DNA from: Fidelibacterota bacterium
GTDB taxonomy: Bacteria; Fidelibacterota; Marinisomatia; Marinisomatales; UBA1611
Direction: 5' to 3'
Assembly: GCA_018671775.1 (NCBI GenBank)
Contig: JABHGY010000023.1
Span: 1,249-65,248 of the forward strand
DNA length: 64,000 nucleotides
Shown: positions 2,446-52,954 of the stretch, in pieces
How the letters are laid out: each line of letters begins with the position of its first letter
Position numbering within the stretch: the stretch's first letter is position 1
The notes under the pieces: model-generated
What the model saw: the letters and a program-made list of their open reading frames with translations, nothing else
Database searches by the model: none
What the model was told of the DNA's origin: nothing
Position numbers and translations under genes: made by a program

Positions 2446-3270
2446 ATGTCAAGAGAATCAAAATCACCTTTTACGCCTTTATTTAGTAATCCGCTGGAGC
2501 CATATCCAGGTTTAACTATTAATGATTTAAATCGATATTTGCCTGCGGTTCGAACGGTAGATGATATTAAAATGACACCTGAAGGAATGTCCGAAGGTTT
2601 ATTTTTAGCAGAAACAATCGAAGGATTACAAAAATTGCCGGACAATACCATTGATTTATTGATTGCCAAACCGCCTGAAGATCCTTGGGCAAATATAGAA
2701 AATTCTCCACAAAAAATGACGCTGCAAGATTTCTATCAATGGAATGAAAAATGGTTGCAAGAATCGATGCGTGTTTTGCAACCCACGGGCGCAATATATT
2801 TACTATGTGGCTGGCGATATTCTGGTATGTATCATGCTTTATTGAATGATCATTTCAAAATTCAATCAAGAATTACATGGAATAATAAACCAGCAAAAGG
2901 TCAAGGGAAATCTCCGACGTGGCTCAATCAAAGTTCTGATATCTGGTTTGCCACGAAAAGTAATGATTTCCTTTTCAATCAGAATTATGTCCAAAAAGAA
3001 TCTTTGGAGATGAATTGGAATGACGACGAAATATCCCATTCAAATTTTTGGGCAGATATTCGCCCTTTGCCAGGTGACGAACATATTCCAGATCGTTTAT
3101 TAAATCGTATTCTAAAGGCAAGTAGCTTTAAACTCAATTGGGTTTTAGATCCATTTTTAGGAGAAGGAATTATTGGACGTATTACTAAAAAATCTGGGCG
3201 ACGATTTATTGGATTTGGAAACGATAAAGATAAACTGCTTATGGCTATGAAAAAAATCGATCAATCATAA
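2446..3270 (+). CDS. DNA methylase N-4/N-6 domain (beta-class) homologue with degenerate catalytic and SAM-binding motifs
   Basis: The beta-class motif order is kept, but each motif departs from consensus. Motif IV reads DLLIAKPPEDPW (nt 2665-2676 = AKPP) instead of (D/S/N)PP(Y/F). The HPxxKP-like segment reads EHIPDRLLNRIL. Motif I reads VLDPFLGEGIIG (nt 3148-3177) instead of DPFxGSGTT. Confidence 0.65.
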   Translation: MSRESKSPFTPLFSNPLEPYPGLTINDLNRYLPAVRTVDDIKMTPEGMSEGLFLAETIEGLQKLPDNTIDLLIAKPPEDPWANIENSPQKMTLQDFYQWNEKWLQESMRVLQPTGAIYLLCGWRYSGMYHALLNDHFKIQSRITWNNKPAKGQGKSPTWLNQSSDIWFATKSNDFLFNQNYVQKESLEMNWNDDEISHSNFWADIRPLPGDEHIPDRLLNRILKASSFKLNWVLDPFLGEGIIGRITKKSGRRFIGFGNDKDKLLMAMKKIDQS

Positions 3271-4271: not shown

Positions 4272-6029
4272 ATGGCACAAATTCCACAGGAGACTATTGA
4301 TCATATTCGAGATACCGCCAACATTGTGGATGTGGTTTCTGATGTAGTTGAACTCAAAAAAAGAGGAGGTAACTTTTTTGGTTTATGTCCATTTCACCAT
4401 GAAAAAACAGGTTCTTTTAGTGTGGCACCAGCAAAACAGATTTACCATTGTTTTGGATGCGGGGCTGGAGGAAACGCCATAACTTTTTTAATGGAATATG
4501 AAAAAATTACATTTCCAGAAGCGGTTCAAAATTTAGGGCAAAGGTACGGCATCCAAGTTGATTTCTCTCATGACGAACAATCAAAAAATGATTATACTAA
4601 ATTGTATGAAATTCACGAAATTGCCACAAATTTATATCAGGATAATTTATTTTCACCTCGAGGAAAAAAAGCATTAGCCTATTTAACAAAACGAGGTTTT
4701 TCAGAAGACATATTAAAACAATTCAAAGTTGGTTTGGCTATCGATACTTGGGATCAACTTAGTAAGCATGCGAACGCAGAAAGTTTGAAGTCGGATTTTA
4801 TTTTAAAAACAGGACTTTTTGCAAGAACAGAAAAAGGAACTTTTGATCGATTCCGTTCAAGAATTATGGTTCCGATATTTAACCCAACGGGGAAAGTAAT
4901 TGCTTTTGGTGGACGTGTTTTTGATAATGAAGATCCAGCCAAGTATCTTAATTCGCCAGAGACACCTTTATATAAAAAGAGTGATATTTTTTATGGAGCA
5001 CATGCAACGCGAGATGCGATTCGTAAAGCAAGTTTCGCCATTGTTGTTGAAGGATATTTTGATTTTCTTCAACTATATCAAGCGGGATTTAGGAATGTTG
5101 TGGCAATTTCTGGAACAGCATTAACAGAGAAGCATGTTCAGAATTTGAGAAAACTTGTTTCTAAAACAGTTTTGTTTTATGATGGAGATCAAGCAGGTGG
5201 AAATGCGGCTGTGCGAGCAGGATTTTTATTGCTAAAAGGAGGCGTCGAGCCAAAAGTAACGACACCACCTTTAGGTAAAGATCCAGATGATTGGATATTA
5301 GAAGCAGGTCGAGAAGTAGTTGAATCTGCGATTAAAAAGAGTCAATCCTTTTTAGGATTCCATTTTGCATTTTATCAAATTCAAAAATTAGATGGCGTTG
5401 ATAAAAGCGATTATGTAAAAAATTTAATCCGAGAAATTATGGAGATAAATGATGGAATTATCCGAGACGAACTATTACGAACTGTTGGACAAAAACTTCA
5501 AATTGGAGATAAAGATTTAGAGAAATATATGCGTCAAACTCAGAGGCGTAGCAGTTATACTCGCCAAGAACCAGATGTAAAAATTAAAAAAGTTTTTTCG
5601 TTTACGACTGTTGAGCAACGGGCGCAATTGGAGCTGATTAAATTGTTAGCCAGTGATGATCCAGATCACCGCCAATTAGTAAAGATGCACGTACAAGCAG
5701 AAGATTTTACAGATACGTTATTAAAAAAGCTGGCGACTCGACTGATGAGTAAAGCAATGGTAATTGACCATTCAGCGTTGATTGAAGATTTTAAAGATAA
5801 AGACGAACGGGACGCCATTACAGAAATTTTGATTCAGGAAGAAATCCATGGCATACCAGAAGAAATTGTAATAGACTGTATAAATATCATAAAATCCAGA
5901 CCCATCAAAGAAAAAATCGAGTCCTTACGTTTATCAATTCGGGAAAAAGAGGCGAATGGCGCAAATGTTGAAAATGAGATTATAGAAGTAATCAGATTAC
6001 AAAAAACATTAAATGAACATTCCAAGTAA
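4272..6029 (+). CDS. dnaG: DNA primase
   Basis: Zinc-ribbon CPFHHEKTGSFSVAPAKQIYHCFGCGAGGNAITFL, TOPRIM region VVEGYFDFLQLYQAGFRNVVAISGTALT...LFYDGDQAG, and a C-terminal helicase-interaction region. Confidence 0.95.
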   Translation: MAQIPQETIDHIRDTANIVDVVSDVVELKKRGGNFFGLCPFHHEKTGSFSVAPAKQIYHCFGCGAGGNAITFLMEYEKITFPEAVQNLGQRYGIQVDFSHDEQSKNDYTKLYEIHEIATNLYQDNLFSPRGKKALAYLTKRGFSEDILKQFKVGLAIDTWDQLSKHANAESLKSDFILKTGLFARTEKGTFDRFRSRIMVPIFNPTGKVIAFGGRVFDNEDPAKYLNSPETPLYKKSDIFYGAHATRDAIRKASFAIVVEGYFDFLQLYQAGFRNVVAISGTALTEKHVQNLRKLVSKTVLFYDGDQAGGNAAVRAGFLLLKGGVEPKVTTPPLGKDPDDWILEAGREVVESAIKKSQSFLGFHFAFYQIQKLDGVDKSDYVKNLIREIMEINDGIIRDELLRTVGQKLQIGDKDLEKYMRQTQRRSSYTRQEPDVKIKKVFSFTTVEQRAQLELIKLLASDDPDHRQLVKMHVQAEDFTDTLLKKLATRLMSKAMVIDHSALIEDFKDKDERDAITEILIQEEIHGIPEEIVIDCINIIKSRPIKEKIESLRLSIREKEANGANVENEIIEVIRLQKTLNEHSK

Positions 6030-7071
6030 ACAGACAGTCCTTTTTATTTTTATTATGAACCTTGCTTTTAGTTTAGGTCATAATAAACTGGAAAAAATAT
6101 GGTATTATGAAAACACTCAAGGTGTTTTAATTCATCTGAAATTAGAAAGCACGATCAAAGCTGAAGACATTTCCGAGACGTTTTCAGAAAACACTAATCT
6201 TTACTTTACTTTAAATAACGTCTATAGCGATAGTGCAATAATAGGAGGATTGAAACCAAAACCACCAATCACTGAGATGAGAATTGAAAACAATGAAACG
6301 TCTCTGAAAATTGGTTTATTGATGAAAATGTCGATCGTTTCTTTCCAGGTTTTTTATTCAAATACTTGCTCTGAAATTTTGATACAAGTTCAAAACAATA
6401 AAGGACAGGGTGTCATTGATTCTTCAACAAAATCTGATGGCAATTTTGCTAAAAGTATAATTTTAGTTTCTGATGAAGGTTTAAAAGGCATGTCATTTAA
6501 AGATGCTTTTACAAAAGCGAGAAAGCAATATGGAAAAGATCAATATTTTTCATGGAAGCGCCATTGGTATAATACTAATATTGTGACTAAGAAGCGTAAA
6601 GAGAAACAGAAGGCTATAACGGCAAAGAAGAAAATTGTTTTGTCCGAAAGCAGTAATGATCCTAAACAATCGATTAATAAAAAAGACGACAAAATAGAAG
6701 AAGCGAATGTTCTTCAACGTATTGTTACAAAAAAGACGACTGGAATTATAGGCACAGAATATTTACCTCGTCTTCCAAAAACAAAAATAAAGTCAGATAC
6801 CAAAGCTAAGATTATTATTTATTGTAACATATCGGGACTGCCTGTTTTGCTCGATGGAAAAGCAATTGGAATTACGCCTATTAAAAAAAGTATTAATGTG
6901 CAGCAAGGATTTCACAATTTGGAAATAATGGTTCCTGAAGCATTAGAATCGGACTTATATTCAATTGAATCTTCTAATAAAAAAGAGATTTATATTCACG
7001 GCGGAAAAACCCAAAAACTAAGATTTAATTTCCCCGAACAATTACGTAAAAAATCGAAGAAAATTCAATGA
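6013..7071 (+). CDS. Secreted or membrane-anchored PEGA-domain protein, function unknown
   Basis: Hydrophobic N-terminus (TVLFIFIMNLAFSLG), a Lys-rich linker (TKKRKEKQKAITAKKK), and a C-terminal PEGA-type motif IIIYCNISGLPVLLDGKAIGITPIKKSINVQQGFHNLEI. The start overlaps the dnaG stop by 17 nt. Confidence 0.6.
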   Translation: MNIPSKQTVLFIFIMNLAFSLGHNKLEKIWYYENTQGVLIHLKLESTIKAEDISETFSENTNLYFTLNNVYSDSAIIGGLKPKPPITEMRIENNETSLKIGLLMKMSIVSFQVFYSNTCSEILIQVQNNKGQGVIDSSTKSDGNFAKSIILVSDEGLKGMSFKDAFTKARKQYGKDQYFSWKRHWYNTNIVTKKRKEKQKAITAKKKIVLSESSNDPKQSINKKDDKIEEANVLQRIVTKKTTGIIGTEYLPRLPKTKIKSDTKAKIIIYCNISGLPVLLDGKAIGITPIKKSINVQQGFHNLEIMVPEALESDLYSIESSNKKEIYIHGGKTQKLRFNFPEQLRKKSKKIQ

Positions 7072-7955
7072 ATCGAAAAGGCAGATTTGCCGAAAAATTA
7101 ATAATTTTTGTCACGTTATTAATTTTAAAATCATTGTTGTTTGGCGCTACAATCACAGCAATAAGTGCTACAGCAAAATCTGATAATGTGCTTCTTACTA
7201 TTCTTACTTCCGAAGCCCTTTCTGGAGATCAAATATCAAGCTGGATTGATCGAGATCATTGGTTAAATATAAAATTGAAGGGAGTGCCCTTTCTATCAAA
7301 TGATATATTAAGTCAAGAATTTCAATATCCAATTTTAGATTTATCTGCAAAAACAATAGAGGAATCAACGCTTTTATCTGTTCATATTTCAAAAAAAATT
7401 ACCAGTTTTTCCATTTTATATTTTCCGAAAATCTCAAGTATTCAAGTGGCAATTTCTTGGGGAAATGATAGCGTTCAGACGGCAACTGAAAGTGAAGTAT
7501 CGCAATCGTTTGTTTTTCCTGATCCAAACGAAGAAGACGGAACACAATTGAAACATCCCAAATCTTGGAGAGAAGCGAGGGTTAGATCGTATTTACATAT
7601 TTTGTGTGATACGCCAGATTTACCCATTTATGTTGATGGGCAATTTGTGGGAAAAACCCCTCTTGAAAATACGGTAGATGTTTTTCCTGGTTGGCATAAG
7701 GTTGGGTATTTCCCAGGAGGTCCAAGCGAAATAGCTCCACCCAAAACGCCAAAAGAGAAAATGTTAAATGATATCGTTCGCATGGGAATTTTGGATGTGT
7801 ACGTTGAAGAGGGAAAAACGCGAAGCGTTGCTTTGTCTTATCAGTCTCTAGATGAAGACGTTTATAATTATCAGAAAAAAGTAAACTCAGGCGCTTGGAT
7901 TGGCTTTGGTCTCTTTTTTATTACAATGCTCATTATCAGTTGGGGGATGGTGTAG
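7068..7955 (+). CDS. PEGA-domain protein with C-terminal TM anchor, function unknown
   Basis: N-terminal hydrophobic segment, PEGA-type motif LHILCDTPDLPIYVDGQFVGKTPLENTVDVFPGWHKVGY, and C-terminal TM GAWIGFGLFFITMLIISWG. ATGA overlap with the upstream gene. Confidence 0.6.
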   Translation: MNRKGRFAEKLIIFVTLLILKSLLFGATITAISATAKSDNVLLTILTSEALSGDQISSWIDRDHWLNIKLKGVPFLSNDILSQEFQYPILDLSAKTIEESTLLSVHISKKITSFSILYFPKISSIQVAISWGNDSVQTATESEVSQSFVFPDPNEEDGTQLKHPKSWREARVRSYLHILCDTPDLPIYVDGQFVGKTPLENTVDVFPGWHKVGYFPGGPSEIAPPKTPKEKMLNDIVRMGILDVYVEEGKTRSVALSYQSLDEDVYNYQKKVNSGAWIGFGLFFITMLIISWGMV

Positions 7956-7957
7956 CT

Positions 7958-8881
7958 TTGAGTCGAATTATCGTTTTCTTTTTAATACTAATGACAACTT
8001 TAATTGGTCAAGAGGAGAAAAAACAGTTTCCTTTATTTAAAATGCCAAGATGGATGATGCCAAAACCAGATTCCCCTTCTTTACCAGACATAAAATCTAT
8101 TGATTTTTCGCCAGATACAGTTGTCGTAACAAAAGAGATTAAAGCGGACACAGTTTTTTTTACAGATACACTTGTTCTTACAGATACAGTTCGGATAGAA
8201 TATCGCATCAATGCAAAAAACGAACGAAAAAAAATTATCCATGGAAAAGGCTATTTCTTAGAATGGGATCCTCTTGAAATTGAACTAAAAAATCAAAAAG
8301 ATTTAGAGGAACTCAGAGAAAAAGCATATTTCCAAGTCCAATTAAATAAAGATAAAAGAATCAAACGAGTGACCTATTATAATAAAGAACACCAAGCTCA
8401 ATATTCTTGGGAATTTATGTGGTCTAAAGATGGTTCTCGTCATGCGTATTCGATATTATTTCATCAAAATATGAGAATGACAGACTTAGATAGCACTCTT
8501 TTTACAGACGCATTAAGCGAAGTGAGAGTGAATTGGACAGCTCAATATAAACATAGGAAAAATGGGAAACTTGCCAGCCTCCTTGTCTATGACCATATCG
8601 GGTTTTTATCTTACCAATATCAATTTGCCTATTTGGGCGAAAAGGGCGAGGATGAAAGAATTCATTCGTCCTATTTTAGAAGTGATAGTTCAAAAGTAGG
8701 GAATCATATAATTTATTATAATGAAAATCAAATGCTAGAGAAAATTGACTATTTTGGCAAAAATGGAAATCTAAAGCGAAGCATCACGATGGATTATTGG
8801 CCCGGAAAAAGTGAAGTTCAAAAAACCATTCGAGATTCGATTGGTATTATTTTATCTCGAAGAATTATTCCTTGGAAGTGA
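7958..8881 (+). CDS. Hypothetical exported protein with repeated beta-hairpin (MORN/YwqK-like) character
   Basis: Long ORF. The likely start is the TTG at 7958, directly after the upstream stop, giving LSRIIVFFLILMTTLIGQ as a signal or anchor. The track start at 7895 would overlap the upstream gene by 61 nt. No recognisable catalytic motif. Confidence 0.5.
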   Translation: MSRIIVFFLILMTTLIGQEEKKQFPLFKMPRWMMPKPDSPSLPDIKSIDFSPDTVVVTKEIKADTVFFTDTLVLTDTVRIEYRINAKNERKKIIHGKGYFLEWDPLEIELKNQKDLEELREKAYFQVQLNKDKRIKRVTYYNKEHQAQYSWEFMWSKDGSRHAYSILFHQNMRMTDLDSTLFTDALSEVRVNWTAQYKHRKNGKLASLLVYDHIGFLSYQYQFAYLGEKGEDERIHSSYFRSDSSKVGNHIIYYNENQMLEKIDYFGKNGNLKRSITMDYWPGKSEVQKTIRDSIGIILSRRIIPWK

Positions 8882-9729: not shown

Positions 9730-11393
<1,664 letters not shown>

Positions 11394-12510: not shown

Positions 12511-13929
12511 ATGTCAATAAAATCCCTGGGGAAACAATCGTTGATTTATGGGGCGGGGCACATTTTGGCTCGTTTGGTTACCTTCATCCTTTTGCCTGTT
12601 TACACCAACATTCTTACTCAAAGTGACTTTGGTATTATTTCACTCGTTTATACATTTTTAGGATTTATGACCGTGATTTTGCATTATGGTTTAGATGCTT
12701 CTTTGCTAAAGCATTATGTTCCAGCTGAGCCCAAAGAAAAAAAATCCATTTTGACCAATGCTTATTTTTCTTTTGTGATTACATCATTGATATTTTCTGT
12801 CGGACTTATCCTGTTTCGCCATCACGTTTCATTTTTTTTATTTGGGGCAGCTTTGCCAAAAATTGTTATGATGGTGGCAGCGATTTTATTTTTTGATGTA
12901 CTTTGGGCTATTCATGTGATGATTTTACGAGCAGAAGAGAAGCCAATCGCATTTGTAAGCACGAGTTTACTGAATGTCTGCTTAACTCTCGGGCTCAATA
13001 TCTATTTTGTCGTTTACCTTCACGAAGGTATTCTGGGTGTGGTAAAGAGTAATTTGGTTACATCAGGTCTTTTGTTTATCGGCTCTTTCCCCGTATTATT
13101 TTCCCGTATTTCACTAGCATCACTTTCGAAAGCTAAATGGAAAAAAATGATGAAATTTGGCATGCCCTTTTTACCGGCAGGAATTTTTTCCATGATTTTA
13201 GAATTATCTGACCGCTATATTTTAAATTATCTCACGGATTTAGAAACGGTTGGACTTTATAATGCTGGATATAAATTGGGGATGTTTATGTTGCTCGTTG
13301 CTATGGGGTTTAATATGGGCTGGCAACCGTATTTTCTCAAAAAGAGCCCCGATGACACAGGCTATATTTCAAAAATAACAACAGCTGTTTTATTTTTGAT
13401 GGGATTCTTTTGGTTTTTACTTGCTTTGTGGACGAAAGATTTGGTTCGACTTCAATTTGGGAATTATTCCTTTTTTGGCGAAGAATATTGGGCTGCTGTA
13501 AATATTGTTCCATTTGTTGCTGGTGCTTACGTTTTTCATGGCATGTATTTATTACAACTTCCTGGAGTTTATCTCAAAGAAAAACCGAGTTGGATTGCCC
13601 TAGTTCGTGGATTGGGAGCAATCTCTAATATTGGACTTAATTTTATGTTGATTCCAATATATGGAATTATGGGGGCGGCTTTGGCAACGTGTATTTCATT
13701 TTTTTTAATGGCAGTTTTTCTGTTTTTTATTAATAAACAAATTTTCCCCATAAACTATGAATGGAAGAACATCATTGTTATTTTCATTACGGCTTTGGGA
13801 TTTTATTTCTTATCTATTAATGTGGAATTATCCTTCTTGCAAAAATTATTAATGAGCCTATCTTTTCCTGTGATTCTTTTGCTTTTAGGCGTGGTTCGAA
13901 TCAAAGATTTAAAAACTATTGCCAATTAA
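12511..13929 (+). CDS. Oligosaccharide flippase (MOP/Wzx family)
   Basis: About 14 TM segments. The N-terminus SLIYGAGHILARLVTFILLPVYTNILTQSDFGIISL is typical of polysaccharide-biosynthesis Wzx-type flippases. Confidence 0.8.
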   Translation: MSIKSLGKQSLIYGAGHILARLVTFILLPVYTNILTQSDFGIISLVYTFLGFMTVILHYGLDASLLKHYVPAEPKEKKSILTNAYFSFVITSLIFSVGLILFRHHVSFFLFGAALPKIVMMVAAILFFDVLWAIHVMILRAEEKPIAFVSTSLLNVCLTLGLNIYFVVYLHEGILGVVKSNLVTSGLLFIGSFPVLFSRISLASLSKAKWKKMMKFGMPFLPAGIFSMILELSDRYILNYLTDLETVGLYNAGYKLGMFMLLVAMGFNMGWQPYFLKKSPDDTGYISKITTAVLFLMGFFWFLLALWTKDLVRLQFGNYSFFGEEYWAAVNIVPFVAGAYVFHGMYLLQLPGVYLKEKPSWIALVRGLGAISNIGLNFMLIPIYGIMGAALATCISFFLMAVFLFFINKQIFPINYEWKNIIVIFITALGFYFLSINVELSFLQKLLMSLSFPVILLLLGVVRIKDLKTIAN

Positions 13930-15304
13930 TTTTGTGAAATATCCTGCTAATATCATTAGAAGTATAGAAGATCAAGAGCCTATTGAATCAATATCAGCTC
14001 AGGGGCTAAAAATTTGGCCTATTCTTCGAAATGTGATTTTTGATAGATTAGAAAAGCGGGAAATCGAGCGTAAGAAAACTGGAATTAAAAAAGTGTTCTC
14101 CAGTTTACAGAATTACTTTTGGCAAGTAAAAAACAGGAACAAACATTTTTCTGCTTTGTTGTTTACAGATAGCTTGGAAGAGCAAAGAATTGATGGAAAA
14201 ATCTCGGATAAAATCGCTCATAATATATTGAAGGAGCTGGGCGATGATATTTTGCTCGTTACAAATACGCTTGGGGAAAAGCACAAACAGATTCAAAAAT
14301 ATGCTCATCCTCATTGTTTAAACACATCTTATTTTACCCTTCCTGCAAAATGGGCGAAAAAGATTTCCCCAATTGAGAACGGTCAAATTTTGAAGAGCAT
14401 CAATCAAACCTTGAATTTGGACATTGATTTTCAAGATACAATCAATCTGTTTTTTACTTATGTTCACATTTTTGATGCTTATCTTTTGAAAGCAAAACCC
14501 AATAATATTTTTATTAATTGTTCCTATTCTATTTTGCATCAAGCTCTTAATTATTCGGCAAAAAAACAGGACATTCAAACCATAGAACTTCAGCATGGTG
14601 TGATTTCGAAAATGCAATCTCCGTATATGCCAAGTAAGGATATATCTAGAAAAACTTATCCAGATTGTTTTTTAAGTTTTGGAAGGGACGAAAAAGATAG
14701 AATTAGTCCTAATTTTATTCCAAGCAAAAATATTTATCCAATTGGACATTTTTATCTTGAGAGGATGAAGAACAAGATTTTTGATAAAAAAACAGAAAAT
14801 TATTTTAAATCGCTTTATGACAAATATGAAAAAATTATCACCATATCATCCCAAGAAACCATTGAAAAAGAATTATTTAACTTTGTTAAAAAAGCGAGCG
14901 AACGCTTGCCTCATGTGGGATTTATTTTTGTGCCACGAAAGGATCATACCTTTTCATTCAAAAATAAGCTTCCAGAAAATATTATATTAAATTCTAAAAT
15001 AGACTTATATACGAACACACGATTTTCCGATTTTCATTCTAGTGTTTATTCTTCTTTTGCGAGTGAGGCTTTGTTTTTAGAAACGCCGAATATCATGATT
15101 AATATACAAGGATTATCAAGGGCATATTTTTCTGATGTCTTCAAAAATAACGCTTTGGTAAAGTTTGTAGAAACACCAGAGGAATATGCAAACCTAATTC
15201 AAAATTGGATGCCAAATCAATCTGAATTTAAAGAAAGAAACGATCAGCTTTTTGAACAAAACAATTTTGAAGCAGTGCAAAAATTTATGAAAATATTGTC
15301 ATGA
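13919..15304 (+). CDS. Uncharacterised soluble protein of the glycan locus, possibly a GT-B-like transferase
   Basis: Long ORF with no TM segments. IELQHGVISK and the C-terminal FHSSVYSSFASEALFLETPNIMI recall capsule/teichoic-type GT-B transferases. The assignment is weak. Confidence 0.35.
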   Translation: MPINFVKYPANIIRSIEDQEPIESISAQGLKIWPILRNVIFDRLEKREIERKKTGIKKVFSSLQNYFWQVKNRNKHFSALLFTDSLEEQRIDGKISDKIAHNILKELGDDILLVTNTLGEKHKQIQKYAHPHCLNTSYFTLPAKWAKKISPIENGQILKSINQTLNLDIDFQDTINLFFTYVHIFDAYLLKAKPNNIFINCSYSILHQALNYSAKKQDIQTIELQHGVISKMQSPYMPSKDISRKTYPDCFLSFGRDEKDRISPNFIPSKNIYPIGHFYLERMKNKIFDKKTENYFKSLYDKYEKIITISSQETIEKELFNFVKKASERLPHVGFIFVPRKDHTFSFKNKLPENIILNSKIDLYTNTRFSDFHSSVYSSFASEALFLETPNIMINIQGLSRAYFSDVFKNNALVKFVETPEEYANLIQNWMPNQSEFKERNDQLFEQNNFEAVQKFMKILS

Positions 15305-16389
15305 CAAAAATTTTATATATTTCCCCAGAAAATACCGTTGGCACGCTTTCTCAATGGAAAAAAATGCACGAAGCAAGAGGGAATCAGTGTGAGATTGTGA
15401 CTCTGTACCCAGCTAAGCATCAGTATGAAGAGGGAATCTGCCTCAATCTTCCTTTGATTTCAACTGATTCTTGGTACACAAAATTTCGCCACAAATACTA
15501 TCAAGTTCATCGCGGGAAATTGGGCGATTATCAAGAAAAAGAAGGCTTCCCTCCAACGTGGGAACCTCACTCATTTTTTGAAAAAAAATATTTCAAATTT
15601 CGAGATTGGATTTGGCATTTTTATATTGAACCAGCCATTAAAGAATATGGATTAATGGACTACGATATTTATCATTTTGAATGGGGGCTTGGATTATATC
15701 GAGATAGTCGTTTTGCCAAAAGGGTCGCGGAAGCGGGGAAGGCAATCGTCTGCACATATCACGGACAAGATATGCGAACCCGTGGCGTGATTCCCGAAAT
15801 GGATGCTTTGAGTCAATTGAATTTGACCAGCGAATTAGATTTGGTAGAAAAACATCCAAATTTAGATTATCTTTTTCTTCCTTTTGATACAGAGCAATAT
15901 AATATCATAGATACAGTTCGCTCGCCCGTAAAAGTGTGTCACAGCCCAACAAATCGACATTATAAAGGGAGCGAAGATATTATTCCAATTTGCCAAAAAT
16001 TAGCCGAAGAAGGATTGATTGCTTTTAATTTGATTGAAAATCAACCCTATGAACAAGTCATCAAACAAAAACAAGAAAGCGATATTCTTGTTGATCAAAT
16101 CCACAATCGTGGCGGATGGGGCTATGGTATGAATTCAGTAGAATCTTTGGCTATGGGTTTGGTTTGCATGACCGAATTGGTGGAACCTTATCAAACATTT
16201 ATCCCTGATCATCCTTTTATTCATATTACAGCAGAGACATTTGAACAATCGCTTCGAGATCTAATCTCTAATCCTGCGCTTTTAAAAGAAAAGAAACAAA
16301 AAAGTAAAGCATGGGTGGAAAAATATCATAGTCATAAAAGTGTATCAAAAGTGCTTTATGCTTATTACAAGCAAAAAGGATGGATTTAA
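15301..16389 (+). CDS. Glycosyltransferase (GT-B, family 4-like)
   Basis: The C-terminal half ...SDILVDQIHNRGGWGYGMNSVESLAMGLVCMTEL resembles the EX7E-region of GT4 enzymes. ATGA overlap with the upstream gene. Confidence 0.6.
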   Translation: MTKILYISPENTVGTLSQWKKMHEARGNQCEIVTLYPAKHQYEEGICLNLPLISTDSWYTKFRHKYYQVHRGKLGDYQEKEGFPPTWEPHSFFEKKYFKFRDWIWHFYIEPAIKEYGLMDYDIYHFEWGLGLYRDSRFAKRVAEAGKAIVCTYHGQDMRTRGVIPEMDALSQLNLTSELDLVEKHPNLDYLFLPFDTEQYNIIDTVRSPVKVCHSPTNRHYKGSEDIIPICQKLAEEGLIAFNLIENQPYEQVIKQKQESDILVDQIHNRGGWGYGMNSVESLAMGLVCMTELVEPYQTFIPDHPFIHITAETFEQSLRDLISNPALLKEKKQKSKAWVEKYHSHKSVSKVLYAYYKQKGWI

Positions 16390-16390
16390 A

Positions 16391-17506
16391 ATGAATCTTA
16401 ACATTGTCAGTTTAGACATTCCCTATCCTCCTAATTATGGTGGTGCGATTGATATTTTTTTCAGAATTAAGGCCTTAGCTGAATTAAACTGTAAAATCAC
16501 GCTTCATTGTTTTTACTCTGACCGACAGCCAGCTTTCTCATTAGAAGCCTATTGTGAAAAAGTATATTATTATCCCAGAAAACAAAAACGCATCACACGA
16601 TTTTTAAGCCTTAAGCCCTACTTGGTTGCATCTAGAGATTCCGTTGCTTTACTCAGTCGTCTATTAGAGAATAATTACCCCATTTTTTTTGATGGATTAC
16701 AAAGTACATTTTTAGCAGATAAACCCGATTTAATCAAGAGGAAAAAATATGTTCGGATTCATAATCTTGAATCTCAATATATGAAGCATTTAGCTTGTTC
16801 GGAAAAATCTATTATTATGAAAATGGGACTTTATTTAGAATCGATTAAATATAGGTTATTTGAGAAAAAGATAGGTTGTTTTGATTTTGTTTTTCCTATT
16901 TCAAATCCAGATAAAACCTTTTATGCTAAGTATAATAAAAAGATAAAAACCATTCCTCCTTTCCATGGAAATAAAGATGTTCAAAGTTTAATTGGGACGG
17001 GAAAATATATTTTATATCATGGGAATTTTAATGTGAGTGAAAATATAACGGCGATTAGATTCTTGTTAGATAACGTTTTTAATGGTTTAGATTTTTCTAT
17101 TATTATTGCTGGAATGAATGCAAGTGAGAAACTGTCTTCTTTTCAAAATGATAAGATAAAAATTGTCAATAATCCAAATAAGCATCATATGAATTTATTA
17201 ATCAGGGAAGCTCAGATTAACATTTTACCTACTTTTCAAGCAACGGGAGTAAAATTAAAATTAATTAATAGTTTATATATTGGGCGACATTGTCTTGTTA
17301 ATCCAAAAATGATAGAGCCAACACCAAACTTAGAGGAATTGTGTGTTATCTGTGACTCTCCTGATCACTTTATTACTAAAATTAGAGAATATATGGAAAA
17401 ACCGTTTAATCGCGAAATGGCACAAAAAAGGCAGGATATTTTATCAAAAATCTTAAATAATAGGGTGAATGCAAAACTAATATTCGAAGAGATGAAAGCA
17501 TATTAA
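16391..17506 (+). CDS. Glycosyltransferase family 1/4
   Basis: MNLNIVSLDIPYPPNYGGAIDIFFRIKAL is the typical GT4 N-terminal glycine-rich start. ATG 16391 lies directly after the upstream stop; the track start at 16340 is an extension into the preceding gene. Confidence 0.65.
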   Translation: MNLNIVSLDIPYPPNYGGAIDIFFRIKALAELNCKITLHCFYSDRQPAFSLEAYCEKVYYYPRKQKRITRFLSLKPYLVASRDSVALLSRLLENNYPIFFDGLQSTFLADKPDLIKRKKYVRIHNLESQYMKHLACSEKSIIMKMGLYLESIKYRLFEKKIGCFDFVFPISNPDKTFYAKYNKKIKTIPPFHGNKDVQSLIGTGKYILYHGNFNVSENITAIRFLLDNVFNGLDFSIIIAGMNASEKLSSFQNDKIKIVNNPNKHHMNLLIREAQINILPTFQATGVKLKLINSLYIGRHCLVNPKMIEPTPNLEELCVICDSPDHFITKIREYMEKPFNREMAQKRQDILSKILNNRVNAKLIFEEMKAY

Positions 17507-18275: not shown

Positions 18276-18316
18276 TTACGCCTCGCCTGATTTGTTGGGA
18301 CGAGGCGTAATTGTTT
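18276..18316 (+). terminator. Rho-independent terminator after the small-protein pair
   Basis: Perfect 10-bp stem ttacgcctcg (18276-18285) / cgaggcgtaa (18301-18310), followed by ttgttt. Confidence 0.6.
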
Positions 18317-18318
18317 AT

Positions 18319-19182
18319 ATGAGCTCATGCTTCTTAGTAAGGATAGGACAGCGTAATCTATTATTTATAAAAAGGGTTGTATATAATCTCTTAAGTATAT
18401 CTCTTTTATTTGGTGCCTTTGAAACAATTCCCAACTCAGCTTATAATTTAGCTTTAGGCAATCCAATCATTAATGTAAGCGGAATGGGGAATGGTGCATT
18501 TTATGATTCTGGGAGTTTATCCAAAAACCGAAAAATACATTTTTCAGGCACGGTAGGGAATAAATTTGGCTTGTCTGAATTAAAGGAATCATCCTGGTTG
18601 ATTGGCTTGCCTTATGGACAATATAATACTGGATTTGGCGTTCGGACATTTGGAAATCATTTATACCAAGAAACGGTCATCAATTTTTTTGGAGCAGGGC
18701 AATTAAAGAATAAATTGTCTTGGGGATGTTCGATAAACTATTATCATATTTTTATCCAGGATTATGGAAATACTTCTACCCTTGGTATTGGCTTATCTTG
18801 GCGGAGCAATCTTTCCAAAAATTTTACCTTTGTTGGATTACTAAACAATATTAATCATCCATCTTTAGGAAAAGACCAGGAGGCGCTTCCACAAATAATT
18901 TCATCGGGTTTGCTTTATAGATTTGAAAATAAGATAAAAGCGTATTTATCTTGGGAGCAAGATATAGAATATTCTGGCAGCATAAAATTTGGATGTTCCT
19001 ATTCCCCGCTACCATATTTAGGATTTGCAATAGGCGGTGGTTCGAATCCAGGCATAACTACGGCCGGCTTTTTTATTTCACCTTCAACCTTTCGTATAGA
19101 ATACGGGATTATTTCTTATGAAAGCATTGGAAGATATTCCCATAAAATTAGTATATCTTACTTTATTCCTTTTTCTTATTGA
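18319..19182 (+). CDS. Putative outer-membrane beta-barrel protein (distantly PorP/SprF-like?)
   Basis: Alternating beta-strand pattern throughout, Gly/aromatic-rich, with a C-terminal ...ISISYFIPFSY. The N-terminal AYNLALGNPIINVSG weakly recalls the NPAxxG start of PorP/SprF barrels. The track start at 18292 lies inside the terminator stem-loop, so ATG 18319 is preferred. Confidence 0.45.
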   Translation: MSSCFLVRIGQRNLLFIKRVVYNLLSISLLFGAFETIPNSAYNLALGNPIINVSGMGNGAFYDSGSLSKNRKIHFSGTVGNKFGLSELKESSWLIGLPYGQYNTGFGVRTFGNHLYQETVINFFGAGQLKNKLSWGCSINYYHIFIQDYGNTSTLGIGLSWRSNLSKNFTFVGLLNNINHPSLGKDQEALPQIISSGLLYRFENKIKAYLSWEQDIEYSGSIKFGCSYSPLPYLGFAIGGGSNPGITTAGFFISPSTFRIEYGIISYESIGRYSHKISISYFIPFSY

Positions 19183-20917
19183 TTTAGGACAAGCCCAGGG
19201 TTTAAATCATTTTTTATCTCAGATAAATCGTGATGAAGAAAATCCTTTACCAGAAGATGATATTTATGCTTTAGAGTATATTGAAAATCACTTTCGAGAG
19301 TTAAATCCATTTTTTATTTCACAAATTGAAAAAATGACATTTCTAGATGAAAACGATATTCAACAATTCAAATCTCAAAAAGAACTTAGCGCTATCTCAA
19401 AAAAGCAATTATCAAATAACGGAGAACTATTTTTTGAATTTATAGAAACTTTAAATAAACAACGGTCCATTGGCGATATTCATATTAAACAATATTTTAC
19501 ATTTAAAAATGATGTTCAGTATCGCTGGACAAGTCGATTAAATAAAGAAAATAAAGCAATTGGACTTTTAGTAGAACGAGATGCGTTTGAAACCCAAGCT
19601 TTGGACCATGTTGGCTTATATATAGGAATAAAGACAGATAAAGGAGAAATAATTGTTGGAGACTATCAAATTAATCATGCTTATGGCTTATTACTTTGGC
19701 GTTCCGTACCTGTTAAAAAAGGTATTGGTTCAATAGGCCAATTATCTCGACGAGGCAAAGGACTTCGCCCATATAAATCAAGCCATGAAAATTGGGCGAT
19801 TAGAGGGTTGGCGTATCAGTGGGGAACAGAGAAAGGGCAATTCTTAGTTTCGATTGGCTATACAGATAGAGATGGTTCTATTGATACTTTGGGATCTTAT
19901 TCGATTTATGAAACAGGGATTCACGTTTCTGCAACAGAGTTGGGCAGGAAAGACGGGATTTCTGAAAATTCACTTATTGTAAATTACGAGCACACATTTA
20001 AGTTAGGCGTTTTTGGCTTATGCGTCCTTTATGCAAATCTAAAAGATAAGGGTAAAAACTTTGTTGAAACCAAAGGTCAATCAATATATTTTGATAGTAA
20101 AATCAAGCAAGTCCGTTTATTTGGAGAATTTGCCTTAGGACATCAAAATACATCTGCTTCATATTTTGGGATAAAAACAGATAATAGACAATTTAAATAT
20201 GTAGCAATTTTGAGAAATTATTCACCTGAATACTTTTCTTTGCGTTCCAATCCTTCTACCGAATGGTCTTCTAAATCGGCAGGAGAAAGGGGGATATATC
20301 AAGGGTTTACTTTCAAACTCAATCGCCATCGTATTACCTTTTATAATGATTTATTTCGAAAGCAAATAAGTACATCAATAGAAGCTTTTCCTGAATCCGG
20401 GCTTGAGTCGGGCATCCAATACGAATGGCGCGCATCAAAAACAATTGTTCGCGTTCGTTTTAAAACTGAGAAGAAGACACGCTCAACACCACAATTTATA
20501 GGCGAAGTTTATTCGAATAATAATTTAACGAATCGCTACCAAGCAACCACGTATCACTCTTATGCGAAAGATTTGAAATCTAAATTGCAAATCAATATTA
20601 CTGAAAGTAATGAGGATATCGGATATGGAATTAATTATCGACTAGATAAAAATTGGCATCAATGGAATTTTATATTTGATGGCACATCCTCTTCTGTAGA
20701 ATCTTTTGATGCCCGCATCTATTTTTGGGATGTTAATCTGCCAGGTGAAATGAGATCTCGAATGGTATCGTTTTCGGGGCACAATTTAGGGTTTAGATTC
20801 TCATATAGTAATAATAGTTATCGATTGAGTATGCGCTTGTCATCCACATGGAAAAATCTCAATTTTAAGATAAAGCCTGTAGTGTCATCGGGCTTATTAT
20901 TAGAATCGTTTTTTTAA
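19118..20917 (+). CDS. Large outer-membrane beta-barrel protein with N-terminal helical (HhH-like?) module
   Basis: Signal peptide IKLVYLTLFLFLIDLGQAQG, about 100 aa of helical region, then a long beta-strand-rich region ending in ...SSGLLLESFF (terminal Phe as in OMP sorting signals). It overlaps the upstream gene by 65 nt. Confidence 0.5.
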   Translation: MKALEDIPIKLVYLTLFLFLIDLGQAQGLNHFLSQINRDEENPLPEDDIYALEYIENHFRELNPFFISQIEKMTFLDENDIQQFKSQKELSAISKKQLSNNGELFFEFIETLNKQRSIGDIHIKQYFTFKNDVQYRWTSRLNKENKAIGLLVERDAFETQALDHVGLYIGIKTDKGEIIVGDYQINHAYGLLLWRSVPVKKGIGSIGQLSRRGKGLRPYKSSHENWAIRGLAYQWGTEKGQFLVSIGYTDRDGSIDTLGSYSIYETGIHVSATELGRKDGISENSLIVNYEHTFKLGVFGLCVLYANLKDKGKNFVETKGQSIYFDSKIKQVRLFGEFALGHQNTSASYFGIKTDNRQFKYVAILRNYSPEYFSLRSNPSTEWSSKSAGERGIYQGFTFKLNRHRITFYNDLFRKQISTSIEAFPESGLESGIQYEWRASKTIVRVRFKTEKKTRSTPQFIGEVYSNNNLTNRYQATTYHSYAKDLKSKLQINITESNEDIGYGINYRLDKNWHQWNFIFDGTSSSVESFDARIYFWDVNLPGEMRSRMVSFSGHNLGFRFSYSNNSYRLSMRLSSTWKNLNFKIKPVVSSGLLLESFF

Positions 20918-24514: not shown

Positions 24515-24596
24515 ATTTTACGTAACTTAAGTTTCAATTTTTACATAGAACCAAGTTCTACCTTTCAAAATTTAACCCAATCACAACCCGGCAGAG

Positions 24597-25856
24597 GTGC
24601 CAATTATGAATCTAAATGAACTACAGATTCTCCGTATCAAAGATCTGACGAAAGTCGCACAGGAATTAGATATCAATGGAGGAATCTCAAGTCTAAACAA
24701 GCAGGAATTAATTGTAAAAATCCTAGAAGCTCAAGCAACAAAAGATGGCGCATTGTTTGCTCATGGCGTTTTAGAGGTCATGAAAGATGGATATGGATTT
24801 TTACGTAGTCCAAATTTCAATTATATGCCAGGACCAGACGATATATACGTTAGCCCATCCCAAATAAAGAGATTTCGCTTAAAAACAGGGCATTCGATTT
24901 CTGGACAAATTCGTCCACCAAAAAAGAAAGAGCGATTTTATGCATTGCTCAAAGTTGAAATGGTAAATGAAGGTCCACCAGAAGATCTCCGAAAAGCTAT
25001 TTTATTTGAAAATTATACACCACTTTATCCAGAAGAAAAATTCACTTTAGAAGTAGATAAAACTGATTATTCTATGAGAATAATGGATTTGATGTCCCCT
25101 GTAGGGAAAGGGCAAAGAGGTTTGATTGTTGCTCAGCCCAAGACAGGGAAAACAGTTTTAATTCAAAAACTTGCAAATGCAATCAGCAAAAATCATCCTG
25201 AAACGAAACGCATTGTTTTATTGATTGATGAGCGCCCCGAAGAAGTGACCGATATGAAACGAAATGTGGATGCGGAAGTTGTGAGCTCTACTTTTGATGA
25301 ACCACCAGAACGGCATGTATCCGTGGCGGACATGGTGATTCAAAAAGCAAAAAGGATGGTAGAGTTTGGCGATGATGTTGTGATTTTGTTGGATAGCATT
25401 ACGCGTTTAGCTAGAGCTTATAACGCGGTCACGCCTCACAGCGGAAAAATATTATCTGGTGGTGTTGATTTTAATGCATTGAAAAAACCCAAACAATTTT
25501 TTGGTGCAGCACGAAATACGGAAGAAGGAGGAAGTCTAACCATCATTGCAACAGCATTGATCGATACAGGTTCTCGAGCAGATGAAGTGATTTTTGAAGA
25601 ATTCAAAGGCACGGGGAATATGGAACTTGTTTTAGATCGTAAGCTAAGTGATAGACGGGTTTTCCCCTCTTTTAATCTAATAAAATCTGGCACTCGGAAA
25701 GAAGAATTGCTTCTGACGCGAAAAGAATTAGGTCGAATGTGGATTTTGCGAAAATTATTGAATGAAATGAATGTAGAAGAAGCGATGACATTCATGTTAG
25801 ACAGAATGAAGCGATCAAAAAGTAATTTAGAATTCCTTGACACTATGAGTATGTAG
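24597..25856 (+). CDS. rho: Transcription termination factor Rho
   Basis: N-terminal [18 protein letters not shown]-binding [15 protein letters not shown], Walker A AQPKTGKT, and [13 protein letters not shown]. The start may be GTG 24597 or ATG 24606. Confidence 0.96.
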
Positions 25857-25902
25857 TTCATAGTTTCAGCCCACTTAAAACACTTTAACTTTCTATTTGA
25901 AT

Positions 25903-26955
25903 ATGACTGACGTTAAATATCCTAATGTAGAAACTGTAATTGCTAAAGTAGTAACTGATAAACCAGTTCGAAAAACACCCTATCAGGTGAAAGGTGTTTT
26001 TATGAGGCAATTCGCAAAAGAGCCTGTAATCCCATTTATGGATGGCTCGTATCGTGAGCGGTTTCTTTATCCTCGCGTTCAAGTTAAAATCTTGAATGAA
26101 CAAATCTATATTATCGGAATCAATGAAGGTGCCGATTCGGTGAGTGCTCTATCTGAAAAGATGGAACATCTTGATTTTGGGAATATCTCTTTTGAAGTCC
26201 ATGGAGTTGATATCGAGAGAGCAAAAAATCAATTTACCCCATCAGAACAACTGATAAGATATAAATTTATCACACCATGGGTTGCCTTAAATCAGATGAC
26301 AGGTGGACGTTATCGATTTTTGACGAATCAGGAAAAACCAACATTTTTACATCGCCTTTTAGGACAAAATATTTTGTTTATTGCAAATGAAATGGGACTA
26401 ATAACGGATGAAAAAATATACACGAAAGTAAGAGTGAGTTCTCTTTTCCCTCGCCCAGTTGATGAAAATAATTGGGGCGCTTTCATGGGAGAATTTAAAA
26501 CCAACATTCGCTTACCAAATTATATTGGAATTGGCAATGGAATCACAAGAGGATACGGCTCCATTTATGGTATGTTTAAACCAGAAGCATTCCAATTTGA
26601 TGAAGATGAATTAAAATCTGAAGTCTCACAGAAGCCCAAAAAAGAAGAGCATAAAGACCCAAGCGATAATTTTAGCGATGAAATAAGCGAAGACATGGAA
26701 GCCATTAGCATGGAAGATGTGCCTAAACCGCGCAGGACAAGAACAGCTAAAGAAAAAGTAACCCCAACCCCAAAACCGAAGAAAAAAACAGCCCCAAAAA
26801 AGCCTAGAAAAGCTTCAAGTAAACGATTGCTCACTGAAGAATTTGATATTGAGGAAGAAGTAAGCTTCAATAAAAAAGGTTCTGAAGATATTAATGATAT
26901 TGACGATTCAAAATTTAATTCTGAAAAATATCATAAGCGCCAGCACAAATCTTGA
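25903..26955 (+). CDS. Cas6-like (RAMP-fold) protein with C-terminal acidic then Lys/Pro-rich disordered tail; no CRISPR context
   Basis: About 230 aa fit a two-ferredoxin-like-halves layout that ends in GIGNGITRGYG (nt 26527-26559). This is an exact fit to the Cas6 glycine-rich loop pattern G-h-G-x5-G-h-G. The tail contains KPRRTRTAKEKVTPTPKPKKKTAPKKPRKASSKR. The family call rests on motif and pattern only. Confidence 0.5.
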   Translation: MTDVKYPNVETVIAKVVTDKPVRKTPYQVKGVFMRQFAKEPVIPFMDGSYRERFLYPRVQVKILNEQIYIIGINEGADSVSALSEKMEHLDFGNISFEVHGVDIERAKNQFTPSEQLIRYKFITPWVALNQMTGGRYRFLTNQEKPTFLHRLLGQNILFIANEMGLITDEKIYTKVRVSSLFPRPVDENNWGAFMGEFKTNIRLPNYIGIGNGITRGYGSIYGMFKPEAFQFDEDELKSEVSQKPKKEEHKDPSDNFSDEISEDMEAISMEDVPKPRRTRTAKEKVTPTPKPKKKTAPKKPRKASSKRLLTEEFDIEEEVSFNKKGSEDINDIDDSKFNSEKYHKRQHKS

Positions 26956-28154
26956 AATATAAATTTTCAGATAGAGTCCTCAATGTAAATCCATCCTTTA
27001 CTCTGCAAATGGCTACACGAGCAGCCGAAATGAGAGCTAAAGGAATTCCAGTAGTTAATTTTGGCGTAGGGGAACCAGATTTTAATACACCTGCTCATAT
27101 TCGTAATGCCGGGAAAAAAGCCATGGATGATGGTTTTACAAAATATACAGCAGGTCCAGGAATGATAGAACTACGTGAAGCTATTATTCAAAAATTAAAA
27201 CGAGAGAATGGTTTGGATTTCAATCTGGATCAAATCCTGGTTTCCAATGGCGAAAAACAAAGTCTTTATAATGTTTGCCAAGCCTTATTTCAAGAAGGCG
27301 ATGAAGTCATTAATTTTTCTCCGTATTGGGTTTCCTTTCCGGAGATGGTAAAATTAGCATCAGCAAATCCTATCATTGTAAAAACGGATTCAAAACAAAA
27401 CTTCGAACCAGATTTTGCAGATTTAGAATCAAAGATTACTCCCAATATCAAAGGGATAATCATGAATTCTCCCTCTAATCCGACTGGTGGCGTTTGGCGT
27501 GAAGAGGCGATTGTTAAATTGTTAAAATTAGCCAAACAACATAATTGGATTATTATCTCTGATGAATGTTATGAGCGACTTGTCTTTGAAGAATCCTTTG
27601 TAAGTATTGAAAAAATTAATCAGAATCATCAAATTGGCGCTGAAGTATTAACGTGCATGAGCCTGTCAAAAACTTATGCAATGACGGGATGGCGCATTGG
27701 CTATACGGCAGGAGATAAAGCGTTGACAAAAGCCATGGCTAAGATTCAAGGGCAGGCAACTTCATGTGCGAATTCTATTGGACAAAAAGCAGCCATCGAA
27801 GCCCTAACGGGCGACCAATCCTGCGTAGATGAAATGCGTGGCAACTATAAAGCCAGAAGAGATGTTATGGTATCTTTATTGAATAATCTCCCAGGCGTGG
27901 AATGTGAAAATCCAGGCGGCGCTTTTTATGCTTTCCCAGATTTCTCATTTTATTTAGGTAAAAAAGCTGATGGGAAAATCTTGGAGGATTCTTTTGATAT
28001 TTCTGAGTATATTTTGGGCTCTGCAAAGGTCGTAACAATACCAGGTGATGGCTTTGGTGCACCAGGTTATGTTCGGTTTTCTTTTGCAACGAGTATTGAA
28101 ATTATCCAGGATGGACTGGAAAAAGTAAAATCTGCATTGGAGCAGATTGTCTAA
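26952..28154 (+). CDS. Pyridoxal-phosphate-dependent aminotransferase (aspartate aminotransferase class I)
   Basis: [19 protein letters not shown], and [15 protein letters not shown] (the PLP lysine). The conserved N-terminal region [14 protein letters not shown] lies upstream of the first ATG, so the TTG at 26952 is the supported start; it forms a TTGA overlap with the previous stop. Confidence 0.9.
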
Positions 28155-48855: not shown

Positions 48856-51329
<2,474 letters not shown>

Positions 51330-51342
51330 TTAATTTTGCCTA

Positions 51343-52862: not shown

Positions 52863-52954
52863 TTTATCTGCAATACTGAAACTACAAAAAAGATTAGACA
52901 TTGCAGTGGATTCATTTGGATTTTTCAATAGAAAATAATTACCTTCTATGCGCT

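Follow-up and report, generated by a model that had tools for sequence, protein, structure and literature searches.

The stretch of DNA analysed here (the window) comprises 64,000 nucleotides (nt) of contig JABHGY010000023.1 (positions 1,249 to 65,248) from the Fidelibacterota assembly GCA_018671775.1. Our subject is a gene on its + strand that lies directly behind rho and encodes a protein of the Cas6b family of CRISPR endonucleases. The rho gene (24606..25856, + strand, 416 amino acids (aa), precomputed Pfam domains Rho_N, Rho_RNA_bind and ATP-synt_ab) ends with a stop codon at 25854-25856, which precedes the ATG of the Cas6b-like gene by 46 nt and an alternative TTG by 40 nt. The open reading frame (ORF) runs on the + strand from 25903 (ATG, 350 aa) or 25897 (TTG, 352 aa) to 26955. 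The ATG was the start chosen by gene callers on three public contigs encoding an identical protein, which is present in Candidatus Marinimicrobia metagenome-assembled genomes (MAGs) such as GCA_018663215.1. No intrinsic-terminator-like site was found on the + strand of the spacer between the two genes (25857..25902). At the other end, the TGA stop of the Cas6b-like gene (26953-26955) overlaps, in the sequence TTGA, the TTG start of an aminotransferase gene (Aminotran_1_2, 26952..28154, + strand), a frequent although not universal downstream neighbour. An earlier reading of the letters alone, made without database searches (the sequence-only reading), had given a distance of about 40 nt from rho and an overlap of the stop with this TTG, and both agree with the coordinates. 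The window has a G+C content of 36% and is otherwise ordinary core genome, with dnaG, eno, murI, folC, rho, rpmE, prfA, prmC, dnaE, dtd, ligA and carA.

The sequence-only reading had described the first part of the protein as two ferredoxin-like halves of Cas6 type, and several independent comparisons with known families and structures confirmed this. In a Pfam scan, the N-terminal RNA recognition motif (RRM)/ferredoxin-like domain (25927..26223, + strand) matched Cas6b_N with 40.5 bits against a cut-off of 25 (E = 3.1e-10), and the C-terminal RRM domain (26242..26565, + strand) matched Cas6b_C with 84.2 bits against a cut-off of 39.4 (E = 9.6e-24). The PADLOC profiles for Cas6 and Cas6b both matched residues 13-224 at about 1e-41 (Cas6b 1.4e-41). 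When a profile built from 15 orthologues was compared with the PDB, the sole sequence matched was the Cas6b of Methanococcus maripaludis (4z7k/4z7l), at 1.6e-30. An AlphaFold model based on a 40-sequence alignment has a predicted local distance difference test (pLDDT) value above 90 across residues 10-220, with a beta-alpha-beta-beta-alpha-beta order in the N-terminal domain. A Foldseek search of the PDB with this model returned Cas6b chains of 4z7k/4z7l as the top five matches (E 8.5e-18 to 1.7e-13), with target-normalised template modelling (TM) scores of 0.80-0.86, and other Cas6 enzymes ranked next. The glycine-rich loop GIGNGITRGYG is encoded exactly where the sequence-only reading had placed it (26527..26559, + strand). 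Its four framework glycines, G209, G211, G217 and G219, are invariant in 40 sequences including canonical Cas6b, and Haloferax Cas6b cannot do without the glycines at the corresponding positions (PMC6546412). An NCBIfam scan assigned no family, and no homology was seen to NusG/Spt5, Rof/YaeO, Psu or Hfq; even at E values up to 10 the Pfam scan gave the Cas6b domains only. The window protein is thus a true member of the Cas6b family, with a resemblance far above chance.

What sets this protein apart from the enzymes of its family is the catalytic site. In M. maripaludis Cas6b, H38 and H40 are interchangeable catalytic histidines, and a drastic loss of activity in vitro was seen only with the H38A/H40A double mutant (PMC3479195). 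We aligned 132 family members with 4z7k. Among the approximately 86 canonical Cas6b proteins of this alignment, about 80 retain at least one histidine of the dyad and about 75 retain both. In the group of the window protein, by contrast, the site reads P/S/D/Q-[F/M/Y]-[L/M/I/V]-[D/N/A]-G, without a histidine in either column in any member. In the window protein itself the HxH dyad is replaced by a PFMDG loop (26032..26046, + strand), and the core of the Cas6b-like family holds no invariant histidine anywhere. A CRISPR-associated Cas6 endoribonuclease would have the dyad histidines and a cas operon or array nearby, and neither is found here. Catalysis has likely been lost throughout the clade, to judge from these alignments. 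Two further proteins of the Cas6b family (P0167 and P0225) also lack the HxH dyad, and the tree described below does not place them in the rho-linked clade.

To find the relatives of the protein we ran an exhaustive HMMER search over 1.84 billion representative sequences, which returned a graded series: proteins with a tail, whose identity goes down to about 45%; proteins of 218-264 aa without one, at 24-39% identity; and ordinary Cas6b proteins of about 220 aa, at 24-31%. A protein database clustered at 90% gave 1221 matches at E < 1e-3; the best 120 of the 1221 are all 322-383 aa long and all carry both Cas6b domains. Two strict peptide patterns placed relatives in at least 170 GTDB species genomes. 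In a neighbour-joining distance tree computed from about 190 core columns, the His-less sequences form a single split, with a bootstrap value of 87/100 when four ambiguous long-branch sequences are left out and 75/100 when two of the four are included. The His-less clade is monophyletic, and its named members are almost all Fidelibacterota (Marinimicrobia/SAR406). All source names are Marinimicrobia, Neomarinimicrobiota, Fidelibacterota or 'FCB group', except for some unclassified 'bacterium' labels and one 'Lentisphaeria'. This last entry (P0306, in the cluster of P0158) belongs to the rho-linked clade and has Marinimicrobia as its cluster mates, so that its NCBI label 'Lentisphaeria bacterium' probably reflects a mis-binned contig rather than a transfer. 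The clade includes Fidelibacter multiformis IA91, the only cultured species of the phylum (PMC11652737), whose protein (WP_400166801.1, 231 aa) has no tail. In the databases some members have been automatically named 'CRISPR-associated endonuclease Cas6' and most are 'hypothetical'.

Within this clade the core has changed little. Approximately 100 core positions are invariant among 15 sequences that are 52-75% identical overall to the window protein, a pattern that points to strong purifying selection on the Cas6b-like core. A pseudogene or relic can be ruled out, since hardly any variation is seen in the core throughout the phylum.

In the surroundings of the gene, the conserved feature is its place behind rho. 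Upstream DNA is available for approximately 80 GTDB species loci, and in all of them rho lies immediately 5' on the same strand; most of these loci keep the block amidase-murI-folC-rho-X-aat-rpmE-DUF1385-prfA-prmC, where X is the Cas6b-like gene. The pair survives where the block does not: in four loci (L053, L063, L066 and L077) the downstream aminotransferase gene has been lost or inverted and rho-X is intact. It also survives in divergent relatives. Eight His-less lineages, with 25-39% identity to the window protein, carry rho as the gene directly upstream in eight of eight cases, in genomes whose Rho proteins are 67-78% identical as against 25-38% for the Cas6b-like protein. Rho is directly upstream in P0149, P0152, P0158 and P0218, and also in P0135, which has two differing downstream arrangements. 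The remaining three lineages have other neighbours: a divergent pyrB upstream and lspA downstream in P0150, unrelated upstream genes and lspA downstream in P0272, and ubiA-dnaE downstream in P0156, the cluster of F. multiformis. Since rho-X outlives both the loss of the aminotransferase and the change of neighbours in divergent lineages, inherited synteny alone is a poor account of it. Gene pairs that are kept adjacent across large distances and local rearrangements usually encode products that interact or function together, and for this reason a function tied to Rho is suggested by the adjacency. The sequence-only reading had placed the gene between rho and an aminotransferase: rho proved to be the conserved partner throughout the clade, and the aminotransferase proved to be replaceable, by lspA, ubiA and others in several lineages. 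The spacer between rho and X is typically 12-76 nt in other loci, and about 150 nt in one lineage. An apparent 399-nt spacer in one locus (L026:2747-3151) is the 3' coding part of rho in another frame, and represents a frameshift or assembly error of the MAG.

The surroundings of the gene were also searched for the remains of a CRISPR system, the scope being the 64-kb window and the flanks of the rho-linked loci. In the window we found no tandem or interspaced repeat array (TRF, and direct repeats at short and at unlimited distance, gave chance matches only), no Rfam family at gathering score, CRISPR-DR families included, and no Cas or defence family: Pfam and PADLOC scans of the 50 ORFs with a length of 150 aa or more gave none, and the precomputed Pfam list contains none. 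The sequence-only reading, which had seen no repeat array and no other cas gene in the 64 kb, was correct in this. Around the rho-linked genes of about 95 loci, up to 10 kb on each side, there were likewise no cas genes or arrays, and a simple array detector run over these loci, about 1.7 Mb in total, reported no CRISPR-like array. As a positive control, the same detector picks up the array of P0278, a canonical HxH relative, directly downstream of its gene. Another canonical HxH relative, P0284, heads a complete type I-B operon with the order Cas8b-Cas7-Cas5-Cas3-Cas1-Cas2-Cas4.

Behind the two domains, the window protein carries a charged tail of 128 aa (26569..26952, + strand), mostly of low confidence or disordered in the AlphaFold model, which is found in marine clades only. 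Its charge alternates in blocks of about -7, +8, -5 and +3. The sequence-only reading had described it as an acidic, then Lys/Pro-rich low-complexity tail that canonical Cas6 enzymes lack; its composition and its absence from canonical Cas6 stood up, and mere low complexity did not, since the tail holds three conserved motifs. Among 117 orthologues, tail length ranges over 101-162 aa. The first motif, DVPKPRR (26716..26736, + strand), has V273, P274, P276 and R278 invariant or nearly so, and its VP[KR]P signature occurs in 109 of the 117 tails. It is followed by a Lys/Pro/Arg-rich basic block (26737..26826, + strand) that varies among species in both sequence and length. Next comes the acidic motif EEFDIEE (26836..26859, + strand), identified in the alignment of orthologues and present in 109/117 tails. 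The last is a C-terminal motif (26911..26952, + strand; consensus FNxEKHHKKQH) with N339, H344 and H348 invariant, which in its full form FNxEKHHKKQHxx is found in 116 of 117 family members. Two parts of the tail are modelled with intermediate confidence: residues 261-280, as a helix and a short strand around MEAISMEDVPKPRR (pLDDT ~75), and residues 333-349, as two C-terminal helices (pLDDT ~64). Intermediate pLDDT values are typical of peptide motifs that fold upon binding, and the model therefore suggests that these are docking segments. Searches of the PDB, Pfam and PHROGs with the tail gave nothing significant; weak compositional matches in the PDB were to basic extensions of ribosomal proteins (E 0.2-1.7, not significant). 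The deep-branching members of 218-264 aa, F. multiformis among them, have no tail. Because these lineages keep the core and the rho linkage, the tail cannot be essential to the core function, and the comparison identifies it as a later addition of the marine clades.

The DNA around rho itself contains candidate cis elements. The head of the rho leader carries the sequence GTAAyTT, immediately behind the stop codon of folC; the window has it as GTAACTT at 24522-24528, 10 nt past that stop. A looser form, GT[AT]A[ACT]TT, follows the folC stop in 49 of 80 related loci (L004-L083) and the rho stop in 13 of 94, and was absent after the stops of ten other syntenic genes (0 of about 680, against a background of about 0.008 per site). 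Its role could be that of a promoter, an attenuator or a protein-binding element specific to rho. A second motif, GGTGTAG(C), occurs in the rho-cas6l spacer of 34 of 83 loci (L019, L022, L024, L028 and among L031-L083), around locus positions 9940-9985, and in none of 74 rho leaders. It is a candidate internal promoter, attenuator or autoregulatory binding site. Of the two motifs flanking rho, neither occurred in 257 further intergenic regions taken from these loci. In some clades GGTGTAG is enclosed by short complementary arms and followed by a T-rich run, and in the spacer of one locus (L063:9845-9979) a unit of about 48 nt containing GGTGTAG is tandemly duplicated (TAATTACTYCC.TATATTTAAYGACTGGTGTAGATAATAAATAATTTGTT, two copies). 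We considered whether rho might be the 'spacer' between two copies of a repeat, as in a mini-array; this was ruled out, as GTAAyTT and GGTGTAG differ and barely overlap. RNAalifold predicted no consensus pairs in either the rho leader or the rho-cas6l spacer. A stem of 4 bp with a C-rich loop of 11-12 nt can be drawn by hand in the rho leader of other clades; it is 89% paired, has few compensatory changes and is weakly supported. In the window, a Shine-Dalgarno-like GAGG lies in a hairpin loop (GGCA-GAGG-TGCC, 24588-24603) before the rho start. Autoregulation of rho might use such a leader stem or hairpin as a rut-like element or an attenuator.

Elsewhere in the window there are runs of conserved, uncharacterised Marinimicrobia ORFs of 154-599 aa (6013-8878, 13919-17503, 18292-20914 and 50862-53812). 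They match no Pfam family at E <= 1e-5, the eight compared with PADLOC as well gave no hit, and several are syntenic in L001-L003. An N6_N4_Mtase DNA methylase at 2446-3267 has no restriction partner among the scanned neighbouring ORFs, and may be an orphan methyltransferase.

Taken together, these findings make it highly probable that the gene is an exapted, non-CRISPR derivative of Cas6b that has become fixed in the rho operon. The sequence-only reading had proposed just such a use outside adaptive immunity, possibly linked to Rho. The first part of that proposal is now supported by the fold, the clade-wide loss of the dyad, the monophyly of the clade, the constant adjacency to rho and the absence of nearby cas genes and arrays; the mechanism involving Rho is one that we infer. 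In the fuller version of our reading, a Cas6b-derived RNA binder has left CRISPR immunity and become a fixed partner of rho in Fidelibacterota, with a Rho-linked role, and we regard the chances of this combination as evenly balanced. A specific mechanism as a Rho accessory is a tentative proposal, to which we give somewhat less than an even chance. On our reading, the gene would be co-transcribed with rho, in line with the lack of a + strand terminator between the two genes, and its product would bind a specific RNA and mostly leave it uncut; like the RNA bound by Cas6b, this RNA would most likely be unstructured or weakly structured. By binding, the protein would mark or shield transcripts for Rho, as a specificity or anti-termination accessory; alternatively, it could exert feedback on the mRNA of the rho operon itself. 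In the marine forms, the basic block of the tail probably provides non-specific affinity for nucleic acids, and the three motifs probably dock a partner, which may be Rho, RNA polymerase or the ribosome. It is tempting to speculate further that a domesticated Cas6, its catalysis silenced, serves the whole phylum as an RNA adaptor for Rho with specificity for sequence or structure, which would choose the transcripts to be terminated or spared, those of the rho operon included, and which in marine lineages would be docked by its disordered tail to the transcription or translation machinery. This strongest form is doubtful.

Several observations weigh against the reading of an exapted RNA binder that works with Rho. 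Any tie to Rho, physical or functional, is one that we infer from gene adjacency alone, and inherited synteny of the conserved amidase-to-prmC block could explain some of this adjacency. The tail-less deep lineages show that the core role needs no tail. The conserved non-coding motifs are absent from, or different in, the rho-cas6l spacer of the window: GGTGTAG(C) occurs neither in 25857-25902 nor in the window's clade. A dispersed repeat that might have served as a lead to an RNA target was sought in the window, and none was found. Some members may have a distal CRISPR locus in parts of their genomes beyond the loci scanned. With regard to catalysis, single His mutations are tolerated by Cas6b (PMC3479195), and Sulfolobus Cas6 cleaves RNA without the canonical histidine (PMC3652601), so that a missing histidine is no proof of inactivity. 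It is because of this plasticity of Cas6 active sites that we call the loss of catalysis likely and not proven.

The same plasticity, with some Cas6 active sites being free of histidine (PMC3652601; PMC6546412), leads to the main alternative, in which the protein still cuts: an active housekeeping endoribonuclease with a non-His site (Arg, Lys, Tyr), as in crenarchaeal Cas6, that processes polycistronic mRNAs, precursors of rRNA or tRNA, or a small RNA, and whose position behind rho reflects co-expression only. Residues that could form such a site exist, since the position aligned with Y47 stays aromatic and R51, near the site of the lost dyad, does not vary within the tailed clade; and genes for translation (rpmE, prfA, prmC) abound in the neighbourhood. 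R51, however, is not kept in the deep lineages (it is Gly in P0152 and His in P0139), the linkage to rho outlasts rearrangements that remove the translation genes, and both catalytic histidines, which nearly all canonical Cas6b proteins keep, are gone clade-wide. A nuclease of this kind is in our judgement unlikely. It is far less likely still that the protein is an ordinary Cas6 that matures the CRISPR RNAs (crRNAs) of a distant CRISPR-Cas locus in the same genome. The label that the NCBI pipeline gives to some members, the canonical fold and G-loop, and the restriction of the CRISPR scans to the window and the loci would all allow it. An enzyme of this sort would nevertheless have lost its dyad, and would be rho-adjacent in at least 88 lineages with cas genes or arrays never within about 10 kb, whereas its canonical relatives reside in cas operons. 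Cas genes have a patchy, horizontally mobile distribution, quite unlike the vertical, phylum-wide conservation of this gene in at least 170 species.

The tail raises a different alternative, namely a general nucleic-acid-binding protein associated with the nucleoid or the ribosome, in which the repeat-associated mysterious protein (RAMP) core is a scaffold and the tail does the work, for example through condensates or ribosome tethering, without sequence-specific recognition of RNA or any tie to Rho. Such a role would fit the composition of the tail, a block polyampholyte whose KPKK region is H1-like, and also its non-significant resemblance to the basic extensions of ribosomal proteins. The distribution of conservation speaks against it: in the deep lineages the core and the rho linkage persist although the tail is missing, and it is the core, including the RNA-binding G-loop, and not the tail that is the most conserved part of the protein. 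We therefore regard a tail-driven general binder as improbable, and retain the exapted Cas6b derivative of the rho operon as the preferred reading.

Among the uncultured bacteria of the dark ocean, SAR406/Fidelibacterota rank with the most abundant, and a phylum-wide rho-associated protein points to an unrecognised layer of gene expression in them. If the preferred reading is true, it offers a clean case of one Cas protein domesticated alone into housekeeping, as opposed to whole effector modules on mobile elements, and the database name 'CRISPR-associated endonuclease Cas6' would wrongly imply CRISPR immunity in these genomes. Should the protein indeed act as an adaptor for Rho, no earlier case would be known in which a single CRISPR RAMP protein was exapted for the core control of transcription, and Rho would gain a new kind of accessory factor, possibly a protein-encoded determinant of specificity. 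The cultured F. multiformis IA91 carries the tail-less form, which makes the hypothesis open to experiment. Our full-text searches of the literature found no description, for Marinimicrobia or any other group, of a Cas6 that is rho-linked, His-less or an orphan. As the sequences are in the databases and no paper on such a Cas6 was found, we conclude that the fold family is a known one and that its housekeeping setting outside CRISPR is new.

The closest known relative is the Cas6b of M. maripaludis (4z7k/4z7l; PF17955, PF17262), with about 24% identity over 194-230 aligned positions. The two proteins have in common the two-RRM fold, both Pfam domains above threshold, and the signatures YP-x-Q-x-K, Y-x-F-x-TPW-x-x-LN and G-x-G-x5-G-x-G. 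Unlike the type I-B enzyme, the window protein has no H38/H40 dyad, and its gene follows rho instead of accompanying cas8b-cas7-cas5-cas3 or an array; the Cas6b-like protein is inherited vertically within one phylum, and its marine members carry the 101-162-aa tail that canonical Cas6b does not have. With regard to the proposed function, protein modulators of Rho are NusG, Rof/YaeO, Psu of phage P4 and Hfq, and the Rho of Bacteroides has a disordered insertion. Here the likeness is one of proposed role only, the tuning of where Rho acts and a charged disordered region, and it is an analogy; the modulators have no relationship of sequence or fold to the window protein. To our knowledge, none of the four is a RAMP, nor is any of them encoded by a fixed rho-adjacent gene across a phylum.

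Another Cas6 fold without the canonical histidine is that of Sulfolobus solfataricus (Sso1437), and the authors who described it proposed that RNA recognition and chaperone-like binding may weigh as much as catalysis in the Cas6 family (PMC3652601). In contrast to the window protein, Sso1437 is a bona fide crRNA-processing enzyme of a CRISPR-rich archaeon and belongs to another Cas6 subfamily; its structure (3zfv) matches our model only distantly (E 1.9e-3). Recruitment of Cas components, Cas6 included, beyond adaptive immunity, as we propose it for the window protein, is also known from derived CRISPR modules. The 2022 review of CRISPR exaptation lists multi-gene modules only: the Tn7-associated type I-F, I-B and V-K systems, type IV, and the cas5-6-7-8 plus STAND arrangement of Streptomyces (PMC8730458). 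Those systems still have a Cascade-like module of several subunits, in most cases accompanied by crRNA or arrays, on mobile elements or in defence islands, whereas in the present case a lone Cas6 gene, with no other cas gene nearby, lies inside a core housekeeping operon.

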